Assembly (NCBI GenBank): GCA_965637545.1
Contig: OZ281497.1
Span: 20,770,001-20,834,000, forward strand
Direction: 5' to 3'
Source: Phallusia mammillata
Taxonomy: Eukaryota
Length of the DNA stretch: 64,000 nucleotides
Shown one piece after another: positions 6,901 to 28,900 of this stretch (positions are counted from its first letter, which is position 1; each line of letters starts with the position of its first letter). The position numbers were made by a program, and so were the translations under genes. Below the pieces are notes generated by a model, which saw only the letters and a program-made list of their open reading frames with translations, searched no databases and had not been told where the DNA came from.

Positions 6901-9900
6901 AACGGTTTTTATTGATTTGATGCTGCCATCTAGCGGTGATTATCACGGCATTTTAATTTTTTGCAGGAAGCAGACGTTTACGATGATTCGGCGTCGAAAA
7001 CTAAAGCAATGCAATCCATCCTTGATATAAAGGTAATTTAGCGTGTTTGTAACACAGACAAAGCCGGTTAATCGCAAGCCGGTTAATTAGGGTATTCGGT
7101 TAATCTGAGTCCCAATTAATCGTTTTCGTTTGTATACAGCGAAATAAACAGTGACAATTTGAATTTGACCGTTGGCATACATGAACATACGAAAACTCCA
7201 CGCCTTTTGGAAAACTACTTCAACTACACTAAACAATGTTTTCTTGCACTATATGACACACATTTCACATAAATGCTATTAAACACAACGTTGTCATAGG
7301 ATACAAAAATCGCGTCGCTGGAACGAATAATCCACGAATTGGAAGACGAGCTGAATCTAGTGAGGAGCGATGGTGCGATGAACAGTGCTGAGAGGCAAGA
7401 GGAAATCAAACAACTGGAAGTTTATAAAAGTCACTCCAACTTTATGAAGACCAAGGTAGGACGAATTTCGACAATTGTTATTGCCCATATTAACAGCGTT
7501 ACTGTTTTAGTTTTGCAGCAATGGCTGTGAAATAAAAATGTTCATAGAGTATTGTTCAAAGTTTTTGTGCGTCTATTTTTGCCAAAAATAATTTGAGGGA
7601 TTCAGATTAAACTTTGGCGACTGGCAGATATAGTCACTGTAGGTGTGCCATCTGTTTTTTTGACTCGACAGCCCTATTGTCACCGCTGGATTTTAAAATT
7701 TGAAACAAAAACGAGAAGTATTGGTTTAAAATGTAAAAGAACGTGAAAATTACAAAAAAACACAAGAAAACCTTGTATTGGCAGATTGAACAACTGAAGT
7801 CGGATCTTCAGAAGAAAGAGACCGAAATGGTTTCATTACAAACACGACTCGACACTTTGAACAACCAACAATCGGACAGCAGACAGCATATTGATGTGCT
7901 AAAGGAATCACTTACAGCTAAGGAGCAAAGGGCAGCTATACTACAATCGGAGGTAATAAATAAAAGAAAAAAACACCTTAAAACGTTCTCTGTTTCGTTA
8001 GCGCTTTGTCAAGATATTCTACTTTAGTTTGCTCACTTTCTGGTTAGTTTGGCAAGAAGTTTCCACTGTCGATTTATTGTTCGTGGATTTTACAGCTGGT
8101 ATTTCCAGGAAAATCCCGCTTTACCCACTTTAACGATCGATCGGTGCCTTTGGGTTTTGATCGGCTTTTTCGACAGAACGGTCGATATTTCAGGAATTAT
8201 AGGTGTTAAGGATATTGTGACAATACACTGAATATTCTAGGGTTTTAGCCTTGGGATGAAGTCATGTGTTGTATTTTAATCAAAGCAGATTTGTCTTGTT
8301 TTCTGTATTCAAGAACAAAATACGATATAGAGCTAAGTTGTAATTTTCCTTATTAGGCGTTAAATTGAATACTTGCCTTAAACTAGTAAATAACTGATAC
8401 TGTATATACTTAATACTACAATTTCAATTAAACGTTATTTGATGTTTAAACGTTATTTGCTGCATATGATTGCTCTCAGTTTTCCTGCGTCATTAACTGT
8501 TTCTTTATAACTCTAATTTATAGTTTATTGCCAGCACGTCGTTAGCTAGCTGCTACTGCCGCCCTTTTAAATTTGATGGGTAGTACGAGCCTAGGCATAC
8601 AATATACATCAGATTACGTTTGGGTAATCGTTTTATTCAACACACTGTGTAAAATAGGCTGTTGCTGCCAGACATAATGTATAACCAAGTATTGCTCATC
8701 CAGCAGTTTTATTGTTTACAATAAAACTGCTGGATGAGCAATACTTGGTTATACACTGTGTAAAATTTGGCGATGGGATAGCAGGTTTAGAAGCCCTTCT
8801 TTAAATTACGCCTTCAGACTTAATTTTGCTGTTCACCAGGTTGATTCTCTCCGCACGCGGCTGGATGAGAAGCAGCAGGTGATTGATCAGAAGCAGGAGC
8901 ATCTTGCTCGCCTCCAGGAGGAGAGGAGCAGTAATGGATCCGAACTCTCCCATCTTCGCGACACTTTGGATGTCAAAGATCGAAAGATTGCAGTCCTCCA
9001 CAAAAAGGTCCAAAAAGTTTCGAAATCGAGTTGTAACTAATTGTGACATTATACTACGGTTCAAGCCAGACCAAACTATACCTTTTTTGAAAATCAAAGA
9101 ACTTCTGTCTAATTAAAAGCGTATAAAGTAACCTCATGCAACATACGTTGTGTTTGTCCTAAACTTTCGCCCATTAATATCTTTTTGCGCTGTGTAGTAT
9201 TTTTCTTTGCAGAAACCTTTATCTAACCCACGTTTTGCAGATTGAGAGCTTAGCGGAAGTGGTTCGAGAAAAAGATCGTCAGATTACCGCCAACAGCGAG
9301 CGAATGAGTGCGTTACAGCAGGACTCGTCCACCAGTGATTCCGCCCTCTCCACCATGGAAGAAGCCTTAACCGAAAAGGTTCGAAATAAATACCAAAAAA
9401 TGCGGTTATAGTTTGCATCTTGTTGGAAAATATAACAGTTTTTTTAAAATTGTCCGTTAGCGCCCTCTTCCGGGTGTTTATAAACTTGGATTGGTTGTAC
9501 ACAATGTGATGATACAATACATATTTGTTCTTCAAATTTATGTTTGAGGGAAAACGCATTTTGTGCCAAATATATAAATTTGGCGGTGGCGTGAAGAAGA
9601 ACACCTAGCTTAAATTGTCGCCCCTTCTCATGTTAAGCTGTGTTTAACAGTTGAAATGAAATAGGCCTTTTTTACCTTTATAGGACAAAGTCATCGAACG
9701 TCTCCGCTCCTCGCAAGAATCCGCGGAGGACAAGTTCCGAGAAGAGGTGGATGATCTGAAAAAAGCCAAAAGAGCGCTTGAGAAGAGACTGGAAGGTTTA
9801 CAAAAGAATCTTGCAGAAAAAGAGGTAACTTTCAAATTAGTATAGCCAGGTAGCAATTGTTTTCCAGAAAGCTTCTGTGCTCATTCTATGCACATTGAGT

Positions 9901-12900
9901 GAGGAATATCACACTTCGTCCATTGAAGGCGCTATACCGAATCAGCCGGTCACCAAGCATTCACCACCATATGGCAAGGCGTAGGCTAGAAAAATCTAGC
10001 TTCAGGGCTGATCCCAGTTATGAATTTATGTGCATCTTAACTGATACTGGTCAATCTGGCGATCCCCTACTACGAAGCTGACATGTGCAGCATACGAGGC
10101 AGGCAACGGTGCTTGTGATTCGACTTTCGGCGGATTCTCCACTGGGCCTGTGTAGCTCAGTTGGTAGAGCGCGAGTCCCGGAAAGACTCCTGTCGTGGGT
10201 TCGAATCCCACCGCAGGCTAGATTTTTCTAGCCTACGCCTTGCCATATGGTGGTGAATGCTTGGTGACCGGCTGATTCGGTATAGCGCCTTCAATGGGCC
10301 TGGCGTACTGTGATTTGAATGATTTAGTTTATCTTTTTGTGCGTTTTTATTTACCATTCGAAAAGACCTTTGAAAAAAATCCTTTTACTAACCTTTTACG
10401 GAACGAACTAAGTTTTGTAGCCATTGTTAATGAGATTGGAAGGATTGCAATGTTTTAAATTTTCATTTTCAGACATCTCTAAGTGAAGTCCAGGAGCACG
10501 CGTCATCCCTGGCATCATCCAGTCTCAAGAAAGACTCGAAGATGAAGCAAATCGAAATCTCACTTCAACAAAAAACTGAAGAGGTCGGCAGGTTGACGTC
10601 ACAACTCAAAAAGGTTTGTATATGATCGAACTATTTTCTTTCACTGACATTCTCAACCAAGCTACACACTTTCGGGATTTTAAATGCCTTACATTCAAAC
10701 GTTTAATAGTGTTTGTGTGTTTTTTAAACATCTTTTGTACCCGTCGGGCATTTCTTTACACCACCAACCAATTTTCGCTGCAACTGCTGTGTTTTCTGTC
10801 AAGTAAATTGTAATCCACAACCCTTATATGATTTAGCTTTCTTGCGTCTCGCAAAAGTGGTAGTTTTTTTCATATTTTATACAATTAGCTTGCAACAACA
10901 ATGGTAGTAATATCGTAGGCGATTGTTCAGCGTTCCTCATTTCGAACTGAATACGTCCAACATGTCTTACTATTTACGTCCATATTCCCTTTTTGCTGTA
11001 TTGCTTTTGTACGTGTAGCTTTCTATGTCAAAACATTTGATTTGACTGGGTTCAAGAATAGTAAGCTATGTGTATTAACCGGTTGGTTTGCAGGCCTCCG
11101 AAGAACATGAAGAAAATCAGGTAAGACTGCCTTGCCACTGCTGCCCGGCTAATTTTTTGCTTTTGCAACTACAGCAGTAGCAAAATTTGCTTGTTTTTTT
11201 TTTACTTTTGGGTGGAATGGTTGAGAATTTTGTTTGAAAATCTTCTAATTCTACAATTAATCTTGAACTTTGAATACAAATCTTTGGATTTGCTGGTGCC
11301 TGAATTTTTGAAGTTTAATTTGTTTTGAGTTTAATGCAACAAAACTTATTTAGTGGCTGCATTAGGTGCTTTGCATAGCAATGCTTCTAGCTTATATCAC
11401 AAACCTATCATTTTTTTGCGGATAAAAACACTTTAAAAACACGATTTTTTTGCTTTAAATATGTTTTGTTCTTTTTTGTCAACGTTAACCCCTTTATGTA
11501 GTTTTTTGCCATACATCTTTTAATATTTACTAATTTTACCCCAAACTACCAACTGCATGCGCCTAACTGCCCGCGAATTTTGGCTCCAATGACGATTTTT
11601 TTCATCATTGTGTTGTCACACAGACTCAGCAATCAGTCGCTCTAGCGAAAACGAAAGAGGAAAGCAAAGAGAAGATTGAAGGATTGGAAAAAGCGTTGAA
11701 GGAAAAATCAGAGGAGGTAGAGACTGACGTCAATGACCTATGACCTTTTACTGACTGTTGATTTTTAAATTTGAATCTCGTTGCCTAGGTAACAAGGGGT
11801 CAAGGCGAGTTGGATCGACTGCTTGAAATCTTGAAGGAAACCGAAAACGAGAAACACAATAAGGACAAGAAAATAATGACTCTCGAGAAGTTGGTGTTTG
11901 TGTTTTGCAACTGATTGGTTTCATTGATTTAACGTCTGTGTTAAACTTTGCAGGCAAACCCGAGACTTAAATGGTCAGATTAAAACCCTTAACGCTCAGA
12001 TGATTGACGAGATGAAGAAGAAGGGAGCAGCCCAGGATAAAGACCTTGCAAAGCTCCTTGTAAGTTATACAAAGAATTAGCTCACGAATATTCTAAACAT
12101 AGAACCTAGGTCTACGAGCTCATGTTTTTGTGCATGTCAAATTTTCTAAATTCATTTTTCAAAAAGGGGTTTTAAACTGTAAAATTTCAGCTTATCTTAA
12201 ACCACTTAAACTTCCCAACAAAAATTGAACGAAATGTGTAGTTTCTTTAAATTTGTTTGTTTGTCTAATTATGAATTTGCCTCACCTTTTTTAACAATTT
12301 TTCTGTGTTTGTTAAGCGTCAAATGAAGACAAGGGATGAGCGGATCGATGAATTGGAGGAAGCTCTGCGAGAGAGTGTCAGCATCACTGCTGAGAGGGAA
12401 GTTGTTCTCTCCAAGGAGGAGGACGCAAGACATAAAGTGGAAAAACAGGTGACTCCATTGTTAAACGAAAATAATCCTTTTTGATTCATTTTTCAACCTC
12501 TTGCTAAATACGTTTCCTATTCATACCTCTGCGTACCATCTTAATCTGGTTTCAATGGTTACACCAGTAATAAACTTTTTTTCCGCGGGAAACATGTTTC
12601 AAAAATCATCAAGATAGGAATTTGAACAGAATGTCCAAGACACGAGTTAAGCCCAATACCAGAAAAGTTTAGTTGGTGCTGGACTCTACTTTGATTTTAA
12701 ATGTTTTTTCATAGTTGGAAGAGCTTGTCCGAGAATTCGAACAGACGAAGGCGATCCTCGCTCAAACCGGAGGAAAACTCACCGCATCTGAAGCTTCCCT
12801 CCACGAGAAGGAGAGGTTGATACAACAGATGAGGATTGAAAGGAGAAAGCATTTGGAAGAAGCGCTTGATGTCAAGTGAGCAAATTATATGCTACTTTCA

Positions 12901-21569: not shown

Positions 21570-23609
21570 ATACAAAGCATTATAATATGTTTGTTGGTGA
21601 AAAATAGCTGTTTTATTTCAAACGACTATTGTAAACTGAGGCGGTGGAGTAAAAACATTAAAAAGCTTTGCACCATACAAATTCCAAACATCAGTAACAA
21701 TTGTATTAATTCATTGACGTTGATATTGCATTTTGTCGTGTTTAAACAACATATATTAATGTAAACGGTGATTCTGACTTCGAATCTAGCATCGCATACT
21801 GTATTAAAGTCGTAAAGAAAACCGCTTTAATTTCTGGCATGTGTCAACCAACACTTGACAGATAGACTTGTTTACCTCGGCAAGAACAGTAACGTTGACA
21901 TTGCTCCCACACCAGTCAGTCAATTGCAAGTGCTTTCATAATTAATCCACCTTTATCTCTTGCCTTTGGCGCCGACTTTTACCAAAACTATAACGAAACC
22001 GTCCGGTTTGCCGTCTTTAAGTTGACGCAAACGATTCGTATTGAAATGATAATTTGGATTAAGTCATAGACTTTAAATACGTGCCATTCACAATCAATGG
22101 GATTTCGAAATCACTTCACTGCCAAACAAGTTCTTTGCATTGAATGTTGTGTAAGTGTATTGGCTGAAAGCACGTTTGACGGAATGCAACAAAGTATAGC
22201 TGCCACGCATAAATAAGACCAAACTGCCGTAGTGTCAACTGATATGTTCATTTAAAGTGTATTGGGTTTAATTTTTCAGCATTAGTCTGTCTTCGATGTG
22301 GAAAAGGCCTTAATGTGGGAAATTTCTTTTACTTTCAAGGCGTGCTTAACGCTTACGAAAAACAATATGTTCAAATGGAAGTTATGAAAATGTTAAAAAA
22401 CAAAACAAGTGCACATCAAAAGACACAAGTTTATTCTTGGATCACGATACGACCTCAAAGTGCACAAACTTTACGCGGGCCCAGGAAAAGAGGATCAACT
22501 TCGGTTGTCGTGATCGTCGAATACTTATAATCGGAACAAGGTCCTTCGCGCATTAAAGACTTAGACCACCGCCGTAGCGATTAATCTGATTCAGCAATTT
22601 TCATTGCTCAAGAGCAACTTCTAAAGAGACCGCAATCACAGCGTCAAATCTTCAAGCCGTGATCGATGTCCGCTTGTGTAAAATTCCATTACTGCTGATG
22701 GTGTCAGCTCCCGAACCACGGTAAATCAAATCATAGCTCGCCACAGGTCCGGATTAAGCCTGACCTATCGTCCTTCCTGTCATGCGAGGTGTCGCGGGCT
22801 TTTTGTTAGCGCGTGATGTTCATCAATCTGCACTGACGGCTATGGGATTTAAGTTGGGAATAAAATGTGGATGCAGGTTGTTGTTTGCGAAAACTGGAGA
22901 CGTTTCGCCGACAATCAAAATATGGACTTCGTTGCCTAGTATTTGACATTGTATTCATTGTAAATGTCATTGTAGACATTTTGTACACACACTTTAGATT
23001 GCTTAACGTTTTATACTGACGGTATTTTTATCAATATGATTTTAGAATTTAACAATTTCCAAAACAGTGTTTTAGGAACTGGCTGTTTTGGGTTCGTGAA
23101 CTTTTTACTGACTGTATTTTTAGCCTCAGATAGTGTTAGTTAACAAATTGTTTGAACAGTATGTTAAGAACCGGATCGAACCGGATAAATTCTATCCCTG
23201 GATAAAACCTTTTTTGAACGTTTAACAGAAATGACTTTCAATGTGACTTCACAACTGGTAATTTCCCTGATATTTTAAAAGTTATTTTTAGAATGAAACG
23301 ATATGCCGATCCCGGTATCGAAACACATGCTATGTGATAAATACATAAATGAGAAATGGGCATTTTTGGAAAGTCTCTCCCTGGATTATTACCAGAATAC
23401 TGCCATTCAGCGTTTAAGTGCTTTATAAGTCGGATTTTTCTCTCAAATAAGCGCGAAAACATCATCCATCAAAAAATCGTCAATGACGCAGCACTGACGA
23501 ACTTGCGTAAAGTCGACTGACTATATTTCCAAGAAATGACCACTACGTGGCGCAGCGGGTCTTACTGAATTATATTTTTCAAGAATTACAGACATAAAAA
23601 AACCCTGAT

Positions 23610-23819
23610 CGGGATTCGTCCCCGGGAGAGTCCTGGGTTCGAACCCCGTGAAAAAAAAAAAAAAAAAAAAAATTAGACGATTCCTGGGTTCGAACCCCGT
23701 GAAAAAATATAGACGATTATCGACAGGGAGATGGCCGAATGATTTTAGGCACTGCATCCATACACGCAAAAAATCGGAAGTTGTACACGACAATGTCCTT
23801 GGTTCAAACCCCGTTAAAA
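23610..23819 (+). repeat. tRNA-derived (SINE-like) repeat with tandem B-box units and an A22 tract
   Basis: TCCTGGGTTCGAACCCCGTG(A)n at 23631 and 23682, a degenerate third copy at 23796, and an A-box-like GGGAGATGGCCGAATGA near 23726. Confidence 0.65.
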
Positions 23820-25292
23820 CACGACCAATATATAGTTATGTGGTAATTTTGTTTTGTCGAATAAACGAACAAAAATTTAAACAATCTTTTGGATACGTGC
23901 ATGTACCCGTTATTGTCCCCCATTGTGTTGTATCGCTGTTTCACTTTTCCTCAGCACTTGAGCGCATATAATCATAGTTGCGGGGTTGCAGCACAGCCTG
24001 CTTGTTAAGAACAATTTGTCAGCACCGGGACTCAAGCTGCTTCGGCAAAGTTGTTGACGAGAACAGCGTGCGTTATTTGTTGATAAACATCTTGCACGGA
24101 TGGACCAACACATAAGCCCGTGCGCTGAGCGACGATTTAGTGCAAACCCGACCGAGTGTTTCTTTCACAGTGACTCGAACCATAAAGTAAAGCCCCCCAT
24201 AGTCACGATTTAGCCCCAACCCCGATTAAAACGCATAGTTCTGTTCAGTCTATGACGTCACAAGGTGATTGACGTGTTTCGATGACCGTATATGGGCAGG
24301 AATGAGGTTCAGGTAAAATTCAGAAATTAGACGTTTGTTTTTAACCCTAAATAGTATTGAGCGCTTAGTTAAAGTCTCTCCGCTTTTAGATTGTAATTAT
24401 CAGATACCAAACGCGGGTAAGGCTTTACCAAATCGTTCTAATATTGTTTTCGGGCAATGGCTTTATCAAATATTTACATTATGTTGAGCAGATTCTGGTT
24501 GCAATACAAGCTTTCTTAGTTTTCCATTCTATTTTCTGTGTACAGAAGGATACGCGTCGCGAACCTTTGGCGACTCAGTCTAAAAAAGCTACACCGACCT
24601 ACGTACTTTAACGTATCTCGTTCAAGTGCTTTTGAACTGGCGGGAACACTGTAGTAGGAAGTTTCGGCTGCTGACTAACGTGATACTTTTACGGATCCGA
24701 CGTGATGTTTACGCAACAAAACGGGATTAGAAGTTATTCATTTCCTCGTGAGATTCTCCCACTGAACATGGACGTTTGTCCGTTGGACCGCAAGGGCCCA
24801 TTCACGACCACATGGACTGACAAACCCGCTCTAAGCCGGTGTTGTCGTCAGAAATATTACTAATGGATGTTTCGCTTCCTTAAACTAATAGGCATCGGAA
24901 TTGTATGTGTCAGTACGCATGGCGTATATTTATCTTGATACACTCTTGGAAATCAAGCTTGTTCTTAAATTCACTTGCAAACAAACGTTCAATTTAAAAA
25001 CAATCGAAATATATTTGTGGTGACCGATATAGCACTAAGCTGACAAAACACATTTTTGCCAAAGTTTTTAACGCTTTACGATTTACCAAAGCTTTTCAGC
25101 CAACATACCCAAAAAAATACACAACAACCACTTGTTAAGTTGAAATAATCAGTTTTTGCCTAATAAGTCACCCCGCGCATGTATCTTTCTTTACTTCCCC
25201 CTTTCAAGGTAATTCCAAAGTTAATACGTAATGTCACGTCATCGCCAGAATTCGTCGACCCTTGACCTCAGTCAATACACCACAGTCACCAC

Positions 25293-25967
25293 TAGGGTTT
25301 CTCAAATTTGCCACTTTGGCTTATCCCGGGATTCCGGGACAAAAACAACCTCAATCCCGGGATCCCGGGATATCCCGGGATTTTATTAGATTTTTGTTAA
25401 ATTTATAATATTAGTTTGTTTGTTTCATTTTTATTTCTAGTGGGCCGGCAAAGCATCAATGCAATATGTTCAGAAGGCCACCGTAGAGCAGCCTGTTATT
25501 TTCTAAGTTAATTGAATATTTTTTTAAGTTCAAATCAGTATTCAAATTAGTCAGTTGGTAAGTCCAATTTAGTTCAACCCATCAGGTTCCAGCTACTGAG
25601 ATAGGATTAGAACCCACAACCTTGTGACACACGTCGATGGCGCTATATAACCACACCGCCGTCTTGGAATTTTACAAATTGCCAGATTTTTACCAACTGG
25701 AGAGCTATAGCGCGAATTTGACTAACTGGGTTCTAACACTGTTGTAATGTTCGCAACAGCAGAACTATTTATCATTCCTGTTTGAATTGTTGCAAGAAAC
25801 CTCGGTGAACACTTTAATTCACGGAAACCCAGTGGATGTCGCGCCTCTGGTTGAAGAGTGCAACTAAAAAAGCATTCAATTTTTGTCCCGGGATATCCCG
25901 GGATAGAATTTTTTGCTAAAATTGTCCGGGATTCCCGGGATCCCGGGATCCCGGGAGAGAAACCCTA
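25293..25967. mobile_element. hAT-superfamily (Ac-like, TAGGG ends) non-autonomous element, 675 bp
   Basis: Perfect 11-bp TIR TAGGGTTTCTC/GAGAAACCCTA; perfect 8-bp TSD GTCACCAC (25285-25292, 25968-25975); 5 left and 6 right subterminal CCGGGA motifs. Confidence 0.94.
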
Positions 25968-28900
25968 GTCACCACATCGACAGGTGACGACAATTGCTCA
26001 CGTCCCCCTTACCCGCAATCGTCTGGGTCAAGTTACCTCGGTGCTACGACCCCTGCGGCTCCTTTGGATAGCTTTCCTCCTCTTCAGCTGATAATCTTCA
26101 CCCCACTCGAACAGACAAACCCCGTGACGTAAGCAGTGAGGTCACTATCGGTAGGCGACTACGTAAATCGAATTCCGGCGAGAATATCAAGTTGGTCCAA
26201 GTTGTTTCTTTCGGTTAAATTTTACTTGTTTTGTTGTGGCGCGGTACGTGATTTTTAGGCGCTTTAAGGATTAGAGCGATTTGGTAATTCGGAGGAATTT
26301 GTGCGGGAAACCGGATCGCATTTTCAACCTGAATCTTTGCTTTGATCCCAATGTTAAGAGTCCGTGTGTGCGTCAATTTGTTACAATGCTTCAAAGCTTT
26401 CGGTGACGTACGTCCGATATCGACCAATGTATCTGGCTAGTTGTAAAACCATCAATAAGATGATCTTAATTGAATAAAGAACATCAATTCATATTTTAAA
26501 ATTATTGAGATTATGGGTTGCTCTGGTCGGCATGCAGATAAGGTCAATCCTTGAATAAACAAGACCCGTATCTTGTTTATTAATCAGTCTTGTGTTTACT
26601 AACATAAATAATGCTCTAGGGTGGGGTGCAAAGACAAAAATCGCTAGCTCAAAATATGGTTTGCACGCCGCTTTACGTTGAATACCGGGATATTTAACCT
26701 TGGCCGCATTGAAACGGTGGCTTGGTTCTGAACAGAAGCGGTTTCACCAGCACGATCCAAAGCAAACTGTCGAGAAAATCAAGCTGATCGGTTGGCATTA
26801 AGTTCCACCAGACACCAATCACCTGGTTGTGTTCGCCAAAAAGCCGCTTTTAATAAAACCTTTGCAATGTTGTGATGGAACAGCTGCTGATGGGCGTGTC
26901 GCTGTCTTGATCCTGACAGATTGAATCACAGGGTCGAGTGGCCGAGCCATGCAGCTGTGATTGGGTATCTCCTTTGGCGGGAAAGTCGTTGGGTGCTACT
27001 TCCACGGCCATGGCCCCAATATTACAGAGGATTAACCAAGACAACAACGATTTGGATCGACCGCATACGATAAGGGACCCTACCCCTTACTGCGTCACAT
27101 TCACGACCATCTAGTGCTTTTCTGGTGTCCGATAACGCCTCAAAACGGAGTGGACAGTGTTTAGGGCGCGTTAAGCCGATGTTGGACACTGAGACCGTCG
27201 CGTGAGTGACCGTCGTTTGCGCAAACGAACTTTGACCTCCGTAATGAGGATGGTTGGTGAAAAGTTGGGTGAGGAGCGAAACCCGAAACCAGCAAAATAC
27301 GCCGGGCGTTCATCAAGTCGCAAATTGACAGCATGGTGAAGTTTTCCTAGAGCTTAATCGACGTTTTTCGTTTGTCGAACCGAAAGGCAAACATATAGAT
27401 ACCTGACTAAAAATTTTTCAAGACATTCTCAGAAGTCTTGATTTACGATTCAAGATTACGTCATCTAAATAGCGTCTTTGAATAAGCCTTTTGAACAAAT
27501 GCAAACACAGATCGTGACTATTTTGATTAGTCTTGTTTGCAGTGACAATTGTGCCATTACCTTTCGCTTTGTGTTTGTGAAATAGAACGGGATATAGTTT
27601 GTACATTTTCACATACTCTATTCACCAAGGAAACTCTTTGTCATTCAACTTTGTCGAGGCGAAAATAAACAAACGTCTACTCGTGGCAAAAATGTGGCCA
27701 TGCGCGAATTGGTCACGTTTTCATTTGATTTTCGCGTGAAAATCGGAAATTTTAGGGACTTTTTCACTTTCACAGACACTTAAAACGTTGCTGCAAAACG
27801 TTTTCGTTTTGGGTTCACCCTATTCAGGCGTAAAGACTTTAATAAATGTAAAAAAGCTCTTGTGTGTTTTTCAAATTTCAAGTTTTATTTTAGTTTTGCA
27901 AATCATTTTTTTCTGTAAGCAAACTTCTGAAACTTCACAAACGGCCCCGCATTCCCACAGGTTTTCGAAAAGACTTCTTAGTCCAAATCTATACTTGACT
28001 TGTGCAAAACAACCTCATATAACACCAGGTCAGCATGTTTGCTACGGGACAAACCCTCTTTAACCCCTTCATGGATTTTCACACACTTTTCTGTGATCAG
28101 CAGTTCACACCTTGAAACCATCGACTTTTCACACCCAATAAACGCCTAATTGTGTTTTCGAATCAACATTTCCAGTTAGCGATGGTAAACGCAAATTAAC
28201 CTCGCCGAAAAAGGTCAAGTGTGTTCGGTAGCAGTCTTTTCACCATTAGCCTCATGCATCTTGACAGCTGGGACAGTTTCAACTGTGCGGTTTAAAGGGT
28301 GGCGTGTGATTGATAAGGTTTTGGGTGTTTTTGCACGCTACCACTCGTAAAACACGGTGTAATTTGGAGAGCAAATAACCCTTACTGCACGGTAGCTTTT
28401 CTGGGTCCTTAAAAGGGTATTTGATGGCATCTTAAACTATTCGAACCATTTAGGTAGAAATGTTGTACCCTAACTCGATAGGTTTATAACCTTTGTATGC
28501 TTTCTTAGTGACTTCAAGATTTGTAAAAAGACTATAGTTTTTATTGCAATGTTTTGGTTTTTTACCCCAACAAACAGTGGCACCATTTAGCTATAGGATT
28601 TGAATTCAAATCTTGATAAACAAAGACCATTTATGGTTTACATGGAATTTTTCTTGGTTTGGTGTAACTTAATTTGTAGCGGCTTGAAAAAAGACTTACT
28701 ATATTCCCAAAAAGTACTAGCCTTGAATTAAACACAAATTTAATTTTAATAACATCGTAATTTGTCATTTTTGCTTCTGCCTAAAGTATGTTAGGGCGTT
28801 GTTCAAACCCACCAAGTTCGAAAAAAAATCTGAGCTGAAAAACGAGCGTAAACTGGCCTTTTCAGCTGATTTGTGCATAAACTCGATTGACTTAAGCTGT

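Follow-up and report, generated by a model that had tools for sequence, protein, structure and literature searches.

Penelope-like elements (PLEs), including Naiad and the non-autonomous Chlamys (MRC1), are described in the available part of PMC8557442 as carrying partial tandems, 5' truncation, an inverted 5' copy and a tail at one end, in some cases in microsatellite targets, and two start sites are reported for the PLE reverse transcriptase (RT) in the accessible sections of PMC11167929. Non-LTR retrozymes are tandem, hammerhead-cut, circular passengers of PLEs, as far as the available sections of the preprint describe them (bioRxiv 10.64898/2026.07.22.740005). The element described here resembles PLEs in this anatomy, and differs from them in having no ORF and an internal tRNA mimic. 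It shares with retrozymes the short non-coding tandem units, a kinship to the PLE pLTR that is seen in the related family D1, and a proposed rolling-circle copying by PLE proteins for which two processing sites are needed. Unlike retrozymes, it has no hammerhead ribozyme in the sequence scanned and carries a tRNA mimic, Pol III boxes and a palindromic loop, and its cutting would need host enzymes. The word 'tRNA' has 0 occurrences in the text of the retrozyme preprint.

During tRNA splicing in animals, TSEN cleaves the pre-tRNA after base 37 and RtcB joins the ends of the intron into a circle; the strength of the pair at 32 matters and its identity does not, and the 3-nt bulge is invariant (PMC6614914, PMC10485636, available parts). 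In tRNA intronic circular RNAs and permuted tRNA genes, the cut lies at a bulge-helix-bulge-like motif, and ligation by RtcB gives a circle with a permuted tRNA body (PMC4536317, PMC6614914, PMC3978253, accessible sections); the same cut is predicted, and the same ligation and circle are proposed, for the element. The published texts, as available, also report that permuted tRNAs mature via a circle, that an archaeal enzyme cleaved a tandem tRNA transcript at a motif of this kind in vitro (PMC3978253), and that circularised tRNA introns give rolling-circle RT ladders (PMC4536317). In contrast to these systems, the motif of the element would come from two identical copies via a palindrome, and its circle would be a transposition template rather than a side product or an intermediate in making a functional tRNA.

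The tRNA-derived SINEs (SINE2) share with the element their tRNA-derived Pol III boxes, high copy number and the absence of a protein. Unlike in SINE2, the tRNA of the element is not at a fixed 5' head, a simple-repeat tail is absent, the units are tandem and permuted, and the full cloverleaf is kept. The Ciona element Cics-1, which we take to lack both poly(A) and a target-site duplication (TSD), may be a relative.

Insertion in the ERC1 Intron

The window analyzed is a stretch of 64,000 nucleotides of the ascidian Phallusia mammillata (GCA_965637545.1, contig OZ281497.1, positions 20,770,001 to 20,834,000), and all features lie on its forward strand unless stated otherwise. The element is present in sense orientation in an intron (9825-10472) of the host gene ERC1/ELKS. 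The upstream (9684..9824) and downstream (10473..10613) exons, identified by protein match, correspond to the consecutive residues 586-632 and 633-679 of P. mammillata ERC1 with 98% identity, which confirms the intronic position given in an earlier note on this DNA. That note, made from the letters alone, described 9920..10297 as a young mobile element without a TSD, with a tRNA mimic between perfect inverted arms. Sequence comparison agrees that 9920-10000 and 10217-10297 are exact reverse complements of 81 bp each. Neither arm is a terminal inverted repeat: the left one (9920..10000, reverse strand) is an inverted piece of the repeat unit, a reverse copy of unit positions 10217-10297, and is joined by a 2-bp overlap (9999-10000) to a forward copy of the ~355-bp unit at 9999..10316, the start of which was taken from loose contig ends and the right end of which falls at 10313-10316. 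The locus thus consists of an inverted fragment of the unit, then a forward 5'-shortened unit, from which the ~37 nt found between 10316 and 9999 in tandem copies are missing. No TSD was found at this locus with either boundary set (9920..10297 or the revised ends), as previously noted. A MITE or other DNA transposon was rejected because the arms do not bound the element and a TSD is absent, and a DIRS-type element because an internal complementary region is absent and, again, the arms do not bound the element.

Copy Number, Repeat Unit and Probable Empty Allele

Contigs of four public runs, three of them DNA-sized (X1, X2, and X4), were placed on positions 9500-10700. The DNA runs contained 10,209, 10,663 and 8,179 matching contigs, respectively, in agreement with the earlier description of a multi-copy non-autonomous mobile element. 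The summed depth in X1 was 4.4e5-1.2e6 inside the element vs 69-76 in the flanks, with similar ratios in X2 and X4; summed contig depth is not a copy number and is read here solely as 'very many copies'. The identities of the copies on these contigs range from over 99% to under 90%, so the repeat family is long-lived. The fourth run, X15, guessed to be RNA, contained 181 matching contigs, which were not counted as expression evidence.

The high repeat depth, together with loose ends (24 of 1,880 listed), reaches 10314-10316, which is 16-19 bp past the right arm. The right end had been placed at 10297; the segment 10298..10316 is a further 3' part of the unit, and the ~145 bp formerly called unique have the same high depth and are part of the repeat. 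Joints connect 10314-10317 to 9999 across an intervening stretch of about 22-37 letters in all three DNA runs (15 of 505 joints listed), and therefore the unit is a head-to-tail repeat of about 355 bp; opposite-strand joints are also present among the listed ones. The unit reaches 147 bp upstream of the tRNA mimic. One fixed 3' end was observed in Phallusia (10314-10316), and a second is hinted at by long loose ends that begin with the linker, again among the 24 of 1,880 listed. Among the 40 of 133 variant rows listed, none lies within 10152-10217, and the locus copy departs from the majority at 10032 and 10145. Exact Phallusia motifs had 0 matches in viral and metagenome contigs; in viral contigs, a CCGG-bearing pattern had 0 matches and a hairpin pattern had 1, an unrelated tRNA.

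The flank contigs bear on the history of this copy. The left-flank contig of X1 fits the locus up to 9920 and continues for another 65 letters, and its right-flank counterpart begins at 10314. For X2, the left-flank contig continues for 109 letters, and its depth of 22 equals that of the contig with a 2-base insertion at 10355. By the sums of both X1 and X2, some 35 letters separate 9920 from 10314. The right-flank contig of X4 begins at 10291, within the element. These overhangs point to a probable insertion polymorphism, in which an empty allele exists and the filled allele is without about 35 bp of target, and this loss would explain the absent TSD at the locus. Along with these 35 bp or so, the outermost section of the left arm has likely been lost from the ERC1-intron copy. 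The identical arms and the probable empty allele fit the recent insertion that was originally suggested.

A rival account, in which the locus is either a conventional SINE that underwent a single inverted duplication or a MITE with a captured tRNA, could draw on the perfect arms in the ERC1-intron copy alone and on the finding of no partner in Phallusia. This account is largely refuted, and we consider it extremely improbable: the unit is tandem and circularly permuted, its tRNA is internal, the repeat passes the right arm, and in four control SINE seeds the 5' ends coincide with the tRNA and none of the abutting pairs is divergent. A tRNA-SINE as such was rejected on the tandem unit, the 147 bp upstream of the tRNA and the lack of a fixed 5' tRNA head.

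The tRNA Mimic

The tRNA mimic (10146..10219) is paired throughout its acceptor (7/7), D (4/4), anticodon (5/5), and T (5/5) stems. It scores 55.3 bits (E 4e-11) with the Rfam tRNA model, is called a nominal Ser-GGA by ARAGORN, and has the cloverleaf as its minimum-free-energy (MFE) fold (z -2.4). The Pol III A box (10153..10164) and B box (10198..10208) were recognized by sequence, and a T5 run (10223-10227) lies downstream; the earlier reading of this cloverleaf with its boxes, C33 and T5 is upheld. Because of its C33, its 5-nt variable loop and an additional base at position 26, ahead of the anticodon stem, the mimic is not a working tRNA-Ser; a functional tRNA-Ser gene was rejected on the same features. 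The anticodon arm (10173..10189) contains the palindrome CCGG at 10178-10181 (tRNA positions 32-35) and a three-base bulge at 10182-10184. It is the palindrome of this arm that co-varies across families; the earlier note had taken the arm as no more than a loss of decoding. In 7 of 10 families or subfamilies, acceptor stems of differing sequence are fully paired (7/7), which bears out the suggestion that the fold itself matters and supports a cloverleaf probably kept for its fold.

An 8-bp hairpin over the T5 run (10215..10234) uses the acceptor 3' strand and is a candidate read-through switch. The T-run hairpin is strong in some families, and families C, D1, D2, and F are without a strong form. 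Since the hairpin takes the acceptor 3' strand on read-through, it would hinder RNase P and RNase Z. One of the two roles proposed in the earlier note, the other being a Pol III promoter, was mascRNA-like cutting by these two enzymes at the cloverleaf ends, which would free linear units from long transcripts. The acceptor and T stems are intact in most families, and this half is all that the two enzymes recognise in a tRNA according to the available part of PMC3978253. However, the fixed genomic ends lie 95-170 nt downstream of the mimic and not at its ends (in Phallusia, the coral family, and subfamily A1 described below), and processing by RNase P and RNase Z leaves the co-varying loop palindrome unexplained. 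With the hairpin considered as well, such a role is very improbable.

Related Families and Their Insertion Anatomy

Metagenome contigs were first searched with a pattern of B box plus T-run hairpin in which the loop was left open. Of the 120 loci detected, 119 belong to one coral family, which is not a blind find, as the degenerate positions of the pattern were chosen with a coral repeat in mind. At a locus of this family the flanking gene is coral (best named matches 85-86% Porites). The unit is 249 bp with the loop CCGG-TAT, and the family may well be catalogued as a SINE in Repbase or Dfam. Some of its loci are one insertion repeated in different assemblies, and with this reservation 28 of 168 segments are longer than one unit, abutting neighbours are divergent in 31 cases, same-direction in 9 and convergent in 0, and 109 of the 160 3' ends are concentrated in 5 of 25 bins with the 5' ends spread. 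A second search, for non-T at 33 plus a T-run in prokaryotic genome bins, gave 97 loci, 34 of which are animal DNA in two bins, G001 and G002. The animal contigs of G002 are from a sea star (96% to three asteroids), and a shared repeat family suggests a coral as the host of G001. Further families came from generic B-box scans and BLAST.

In the young subfamily A1 of G001, 31 loci contain 26 divergent junctions, 2 in the same direction and none that is convergent; 51 of its 68 3' ends lie at two sites ~47 nt apart. Family G (88 matches) has 7 divergent and 0 convergent junctions in 10 loci, families C and D1 (370-bp unit) each have 3 divergent and 1 convergent, family E shows tandem permutation only, and family F is represented by one copy. 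Two fixed 3' ends are present in A1, C, D1, and G. Divergent insertions in G001 have a terminal repeat of at least 7 bp in 17 of 24 cases vs 19 of 550 mismatched flank pairs; the absence of a TSD, correct for the Phallusia locus, is thus not a trait of these coral-type relatives and is unsupported as a feature of the class. Tandem arrays and divergent inverted pairs are shared by look-alikes from the coral, the animal-contaminated bin and the sea star, and some relatives sit in microsatellite targets. One tRNA-like repeat without a proper anticodon arm (L384), present as direct repeats at a spacing of ~500 bp, is a possible counter-example. Similarity within arrays cannot separate rolling circle from local duplication. 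When the non-tRNA parts of the Phallusia unit were compared with 8 other units, the best result (A2, upstream part) was equalled by 1 of 200 shuffles among 16 tests and is treated as unproven.

The divergent pairs, arrays and truncation in the relatives match the PLE anatomy described in the available part of PMC8557442, and their two fixed 3' ends match the two RT start sites reported in the accessible text of PMC11167929. The inverted arm and head-to-tail unit in Phallusia, with the divergent pairs of its relatives, agree with the PLE-like anatomy noted earlier. We consider it very likely that the element depends on a PLE.

Comparison with Autonomous PLEs

Many RT and GIY-YIG frames occur in bin G001, and 20 regions of this kind yielded 23 hammerhead-like cores. 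The D1 unit and the 3' end of a GIY-YIG PLE at locus L263 share an alignment of ~135 nt that starts 3 nt after the hammerhead core of the PLE (score 78 vs shuffled maxima of 30.3 +/- 3.5; 0 of 100 shuffles as good), and the tRNA mimic and T-run of D1 occupy the place of the hammerhead ribozyme in this PLE. Based on its C-terminal GIY-YIG and hammerhead, the L263 PLE is not a Naiad. The 23 PLE ends, which are foreign to Phallusia, gave no match for the other seven units tested, including Phallusia (97 of 100 shuffles as good), A, C, D2, and E. No PLE protein match was found in the 64-kb window, and no match for A1 in the 20 PLE-bearing regions. Among the 67 of 77 long ORFs beside coral copies that were searched, there was no RT or GIY-YIG, and host genes were found instead. 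The hammerhead core is absent from 8 units by motif, and none was detected in Rfam scans, which covered the Phallusia unit outside its ~37-nt linker.

The Palindromic Anticodon Loop

The idea of a bulge-helix-bulge came from the Phallusia loop CCGG-AAA, and CCGG or CTAG in relatives was predicted before CTAG was found. The loops identified are ACGT-CAA in family C, CTAG-TAA in D1 and E, CCGG-TAA in F, and GATC-TAA in G. Family D2 contains CTAG-TGA, CTAG-TGT and CCGG-TAA and is thus one family with both CTAG and CCGG. A palindrome (CCGG, CTAG, ACGT, or GATC) is present at 32-35 in 12/12 family representatives, all 12 with a purine at 37, vs 0/11 control tRNAs and SINEs from the same contigs, the 32-35 register being uncertain for controls with long variable arms. 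The seven tRNA bodies are 53-69% alike and are no closer to each other than to a true tRNA-Lys. Counted per copy, the palindrome is present in 74/99 copies of A, with 12 more forming a subfamily in which an extra T shifts the register and the palindrome is kept, and in 5/7 of C, 7/7 of D1, 4/4 of D2, 2/3 of E and 15/15 of G (three E copies caught by the G pattern left out). One 7-unit array carries CTGG.

These palindromes could be a by-product of ancestry, with a CTAG-loop tRNA as one conceivable progenitor, combined with a bias towards C33-G34. The mimic of a PLE-dependent element would then be merely an internal promoter, with arrays arising from template jumps or local duplication. Palindromes do occur elsewhere: 29 of 63 bacterial non-U33 tRNA matches are also palindromic, 27 of those of one loop type. 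Moreover, two families were found by a pattern demanding non-T at 33, and the families were sorted after their loops had been seen. Even at the bacterial rate, which is inflated, seven of seven palindromic bodies would be expected in under 1 in 100 cases, and at the uniform rate of 16/256 far less often. Four different palindromes on seven bodies, their absence from the 11 controls, a two-base compensatory change within one family with the CpG retained, and the prediction of CTAG before its discovery all argue against a by-product, which we regard as quite improbable. We hold with good confidence that the loop pairing is functional. Pairing between copies is well supported by the co-variation, and its exact shape, hence cutting, less so.

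Folding of Paired Copies

For two Phallusia anticodon arms, the MFE dimer is an exact 3-4-3 bulge-helix-bulge (-16.7 vs -8.2 kcal/mol for two hairpins), in which a TSEN cut is predicted between 10183 and 10184. As modelled, this dimer offers what a TSEN substrate would need, namely a pair at position 32, a three-base bulge and an intact tRNA body; other families have competing folds. When a read-through copy and a terminated Phallusia copy are folded together, swapped halves with the hairpin and bulge-helix-bulge reach -68.6 kcal/mol, compared with -61.7 for their own arms and -58.8 for two cloverleaves; in the unconstrained minimum (-76.5 kcal/mol) the T arms cross-pair instead. In tandem precursors cut at the second T-run, the acceptor-stem swap probability is 0.92-0.99 in A0, A1, A2, and G, and it is 0.11, that is, no swap, in the real tandem precursor of D1. 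The loop-helix probability in real tandem precursors is 1.0 for G, 0-0.37 for A and 0.03 for D1. The exact 3-4-3 as MFE is found in Phallusia only among the 12 representatives. A 6-nt palindrome is present in 9 of them, with folds that are 3-6-3, 2-6-2 or helix only, and plain dimerisation fits these as well.

It is accordingly conceivable that, in a PLE-dependent element, the palindromic loop only dimerises the RNA as a kissing loop or extended duplex, with nothing cut and no circle, giving a PLE dimer two templates or aiding template jumps, and that the mimic is also a Pol III promoter. The 6-nt palindromes and varying bulge sizes suit this explanation, as do the near-obligate divergent pairs of A1, and the available part of PMC11167929 describes a PLE protein predicted to be a dimer, with unprocessed RNA as the main substrate in vitro. 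However, the register 32-35 and the purine at 37, kept in 12/12 representatives, are the geometry that TSEN measures (PMC6614914, accessible sections), autonomous PLEs form inverted pairs without a tRNA, and in D1 the mimic occupies the position of a cutting ribozyme. Dimerisation alone is therefore, in our assessment, somewhat unlikely.

Proposed Mechanism

The reading preferred here is a non-autonomous PLE passenger whose tandem RNA would be cut by TSEN and closed into a circle by RtcB, replacing the retrozyme ribozyme; we give it even chances. The element is a non-coding tandem repeat of high copy number that a Penelope-like reverse transcriptase likely copies, and in which the tRNA mimic likely takes the place of the hammerhead ribozyme of retrozymes. 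Pol III would start at one mimic and sometimes read through the T-run, or a Pol II transcript may cross the array. Read-through would form the T-run hairpin, and the 5' half of copy 1 would be freed to pair with the 3' half of copy 2; the swapped halves would amount to a pre-tRNA whose 'intron' is one whole unit. The palindromic loops of two successive copies would then pair, TSEN would cut both after base 37, and RtcB ligation would give a ~355-nt circle with its acceptor stem masked from RNase P/Z. The insertion anatomy suggests that the PLE protein would start reverse transcription at two internal sites and run round the circle, which would generate the arrays, random 5' ends, divergent inverted arm and target duplication. 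The ERC1-intron copy has a single tRNA mimic and would therefore be a dead end for the proposed circle.

Several points count against this proposal. T5-T12 runs should stop most Pol III before the second copy. In the available parts of the respective papers, flies produced less tricRNA when the helix was too tightly paired (PMC6614914), the tRNA introns of animals are naturally up to ~250 nt long (PMC4536317), compared with the ~355-nt unit, and PLE insertion in vitro did not need hammerhead cleavage (PMC11167929). The predicted circle junction is seamless, and contigs alone cannot reveal a cut or circle.

Implications for PLE Biology

The element is very likely a new non-autonomous PLE variant with a candidate new processing module. 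In the full-text literature, as distinct from repeat databases, subscription journals and preprint supplements, no description of tRNA-bearing PLE passengers or of such palindromic loops was found, and the available part of PMC5786205 does not cover tRNA-bearing PLE passengers. A broader possibility, which we advance tentatively and at slightly less than even chances, is a widespread unrecognised class of animal elements, 'tRNA-spliced retrozymes', in which the PLE hammerhead would have been repeatedly replaced by a palindromic-loop tRNA mimic and the circle made by TSEN and RtcB would be copied by the PLE RT; such elements would account for many of the 'tRNA pseudogenes' in corals, echinoderms and tunicates.

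If the proposal is true, a mobile element would make its replication template via the host tRNA splicing pathway, and the natural substrates of TSEN and RtcB in animals would include a large additional class. The element would further offer a direct test of what the ribozyme position of PLEs is for, a question long open in PLE biology, as the ribozyme slot would hold a module with a simple loss-and-rescue test, the palindrome swap. Even without a circle, the four co-varying palindromes point to genuine pairing between RNAs, and the anatomy moves abundant tRNA-like repeats in three phyla from SINEs or pseudogenes to likely PLE passengers.

Other Repeats in the Window

An insertion of 97 bp (8656-8752, in the region 8642-8766) consists, in the window sequence, of two divergent inverted arms, one of which is longer, and is flanked by exact direct repeats of 14 bp (8642-8655 and 8753-8766). 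No second copy of this insertion was found within the 64-kb window. Judged from its sequence, it looks like a tiny insertion of the Penelope-like element (PLE) type, with a tail and a TSD, from a family other than that of the main tRNA-mimic repeat.

A degenerate tRNA-like repeat at 23600-23830 carries three B-box fragments, an A run of 22 nt, and a short tandem duplication. A MITE-like element at 25270-25980, with an inverted arrangement of CCCGGGAT-type subterminal repeats, encloses a minus-strand fragment that resembles a tRNA (~25590-25660).

Observations Outside Phallusia

The combination of C33 with a TCGA palindrome in the anticodon loop is present in many bacterial tRNA-Val(GAC)-type genes (L124, L128, L130, L139, and others), which make up 27 of the 63 non-animal tRNA hits without U33. 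Animal DNA was present in two prokaryotic genome bins, G001 (L123 and other loci) and G002 (L134 and L299-L314): the former holds hundreds of animal contigs that are rich in repeats and in which RT and GIY-YIG frames are numerous, and in the latter the chromosome of the bin is accompanied by sea-star contigs. An additional tRNA-like sequence in G001 (contig C526, 194-242) has the word CTAG within its loop.

A (TA)n or (TC)n microsatellite forms the end of several hammerhead-bearing PLEs and of the tRNA-mimic families D1 and D2, and these elements lie nested one inside another (L259, L265, L266, L274, L318, L329, and L356). Among copies of one autonomous PLE (L267:7332-7377), the ends fall at two positions separated by 45 nt, a spacing equal to the tail length of the tRNA-mimic family A1.
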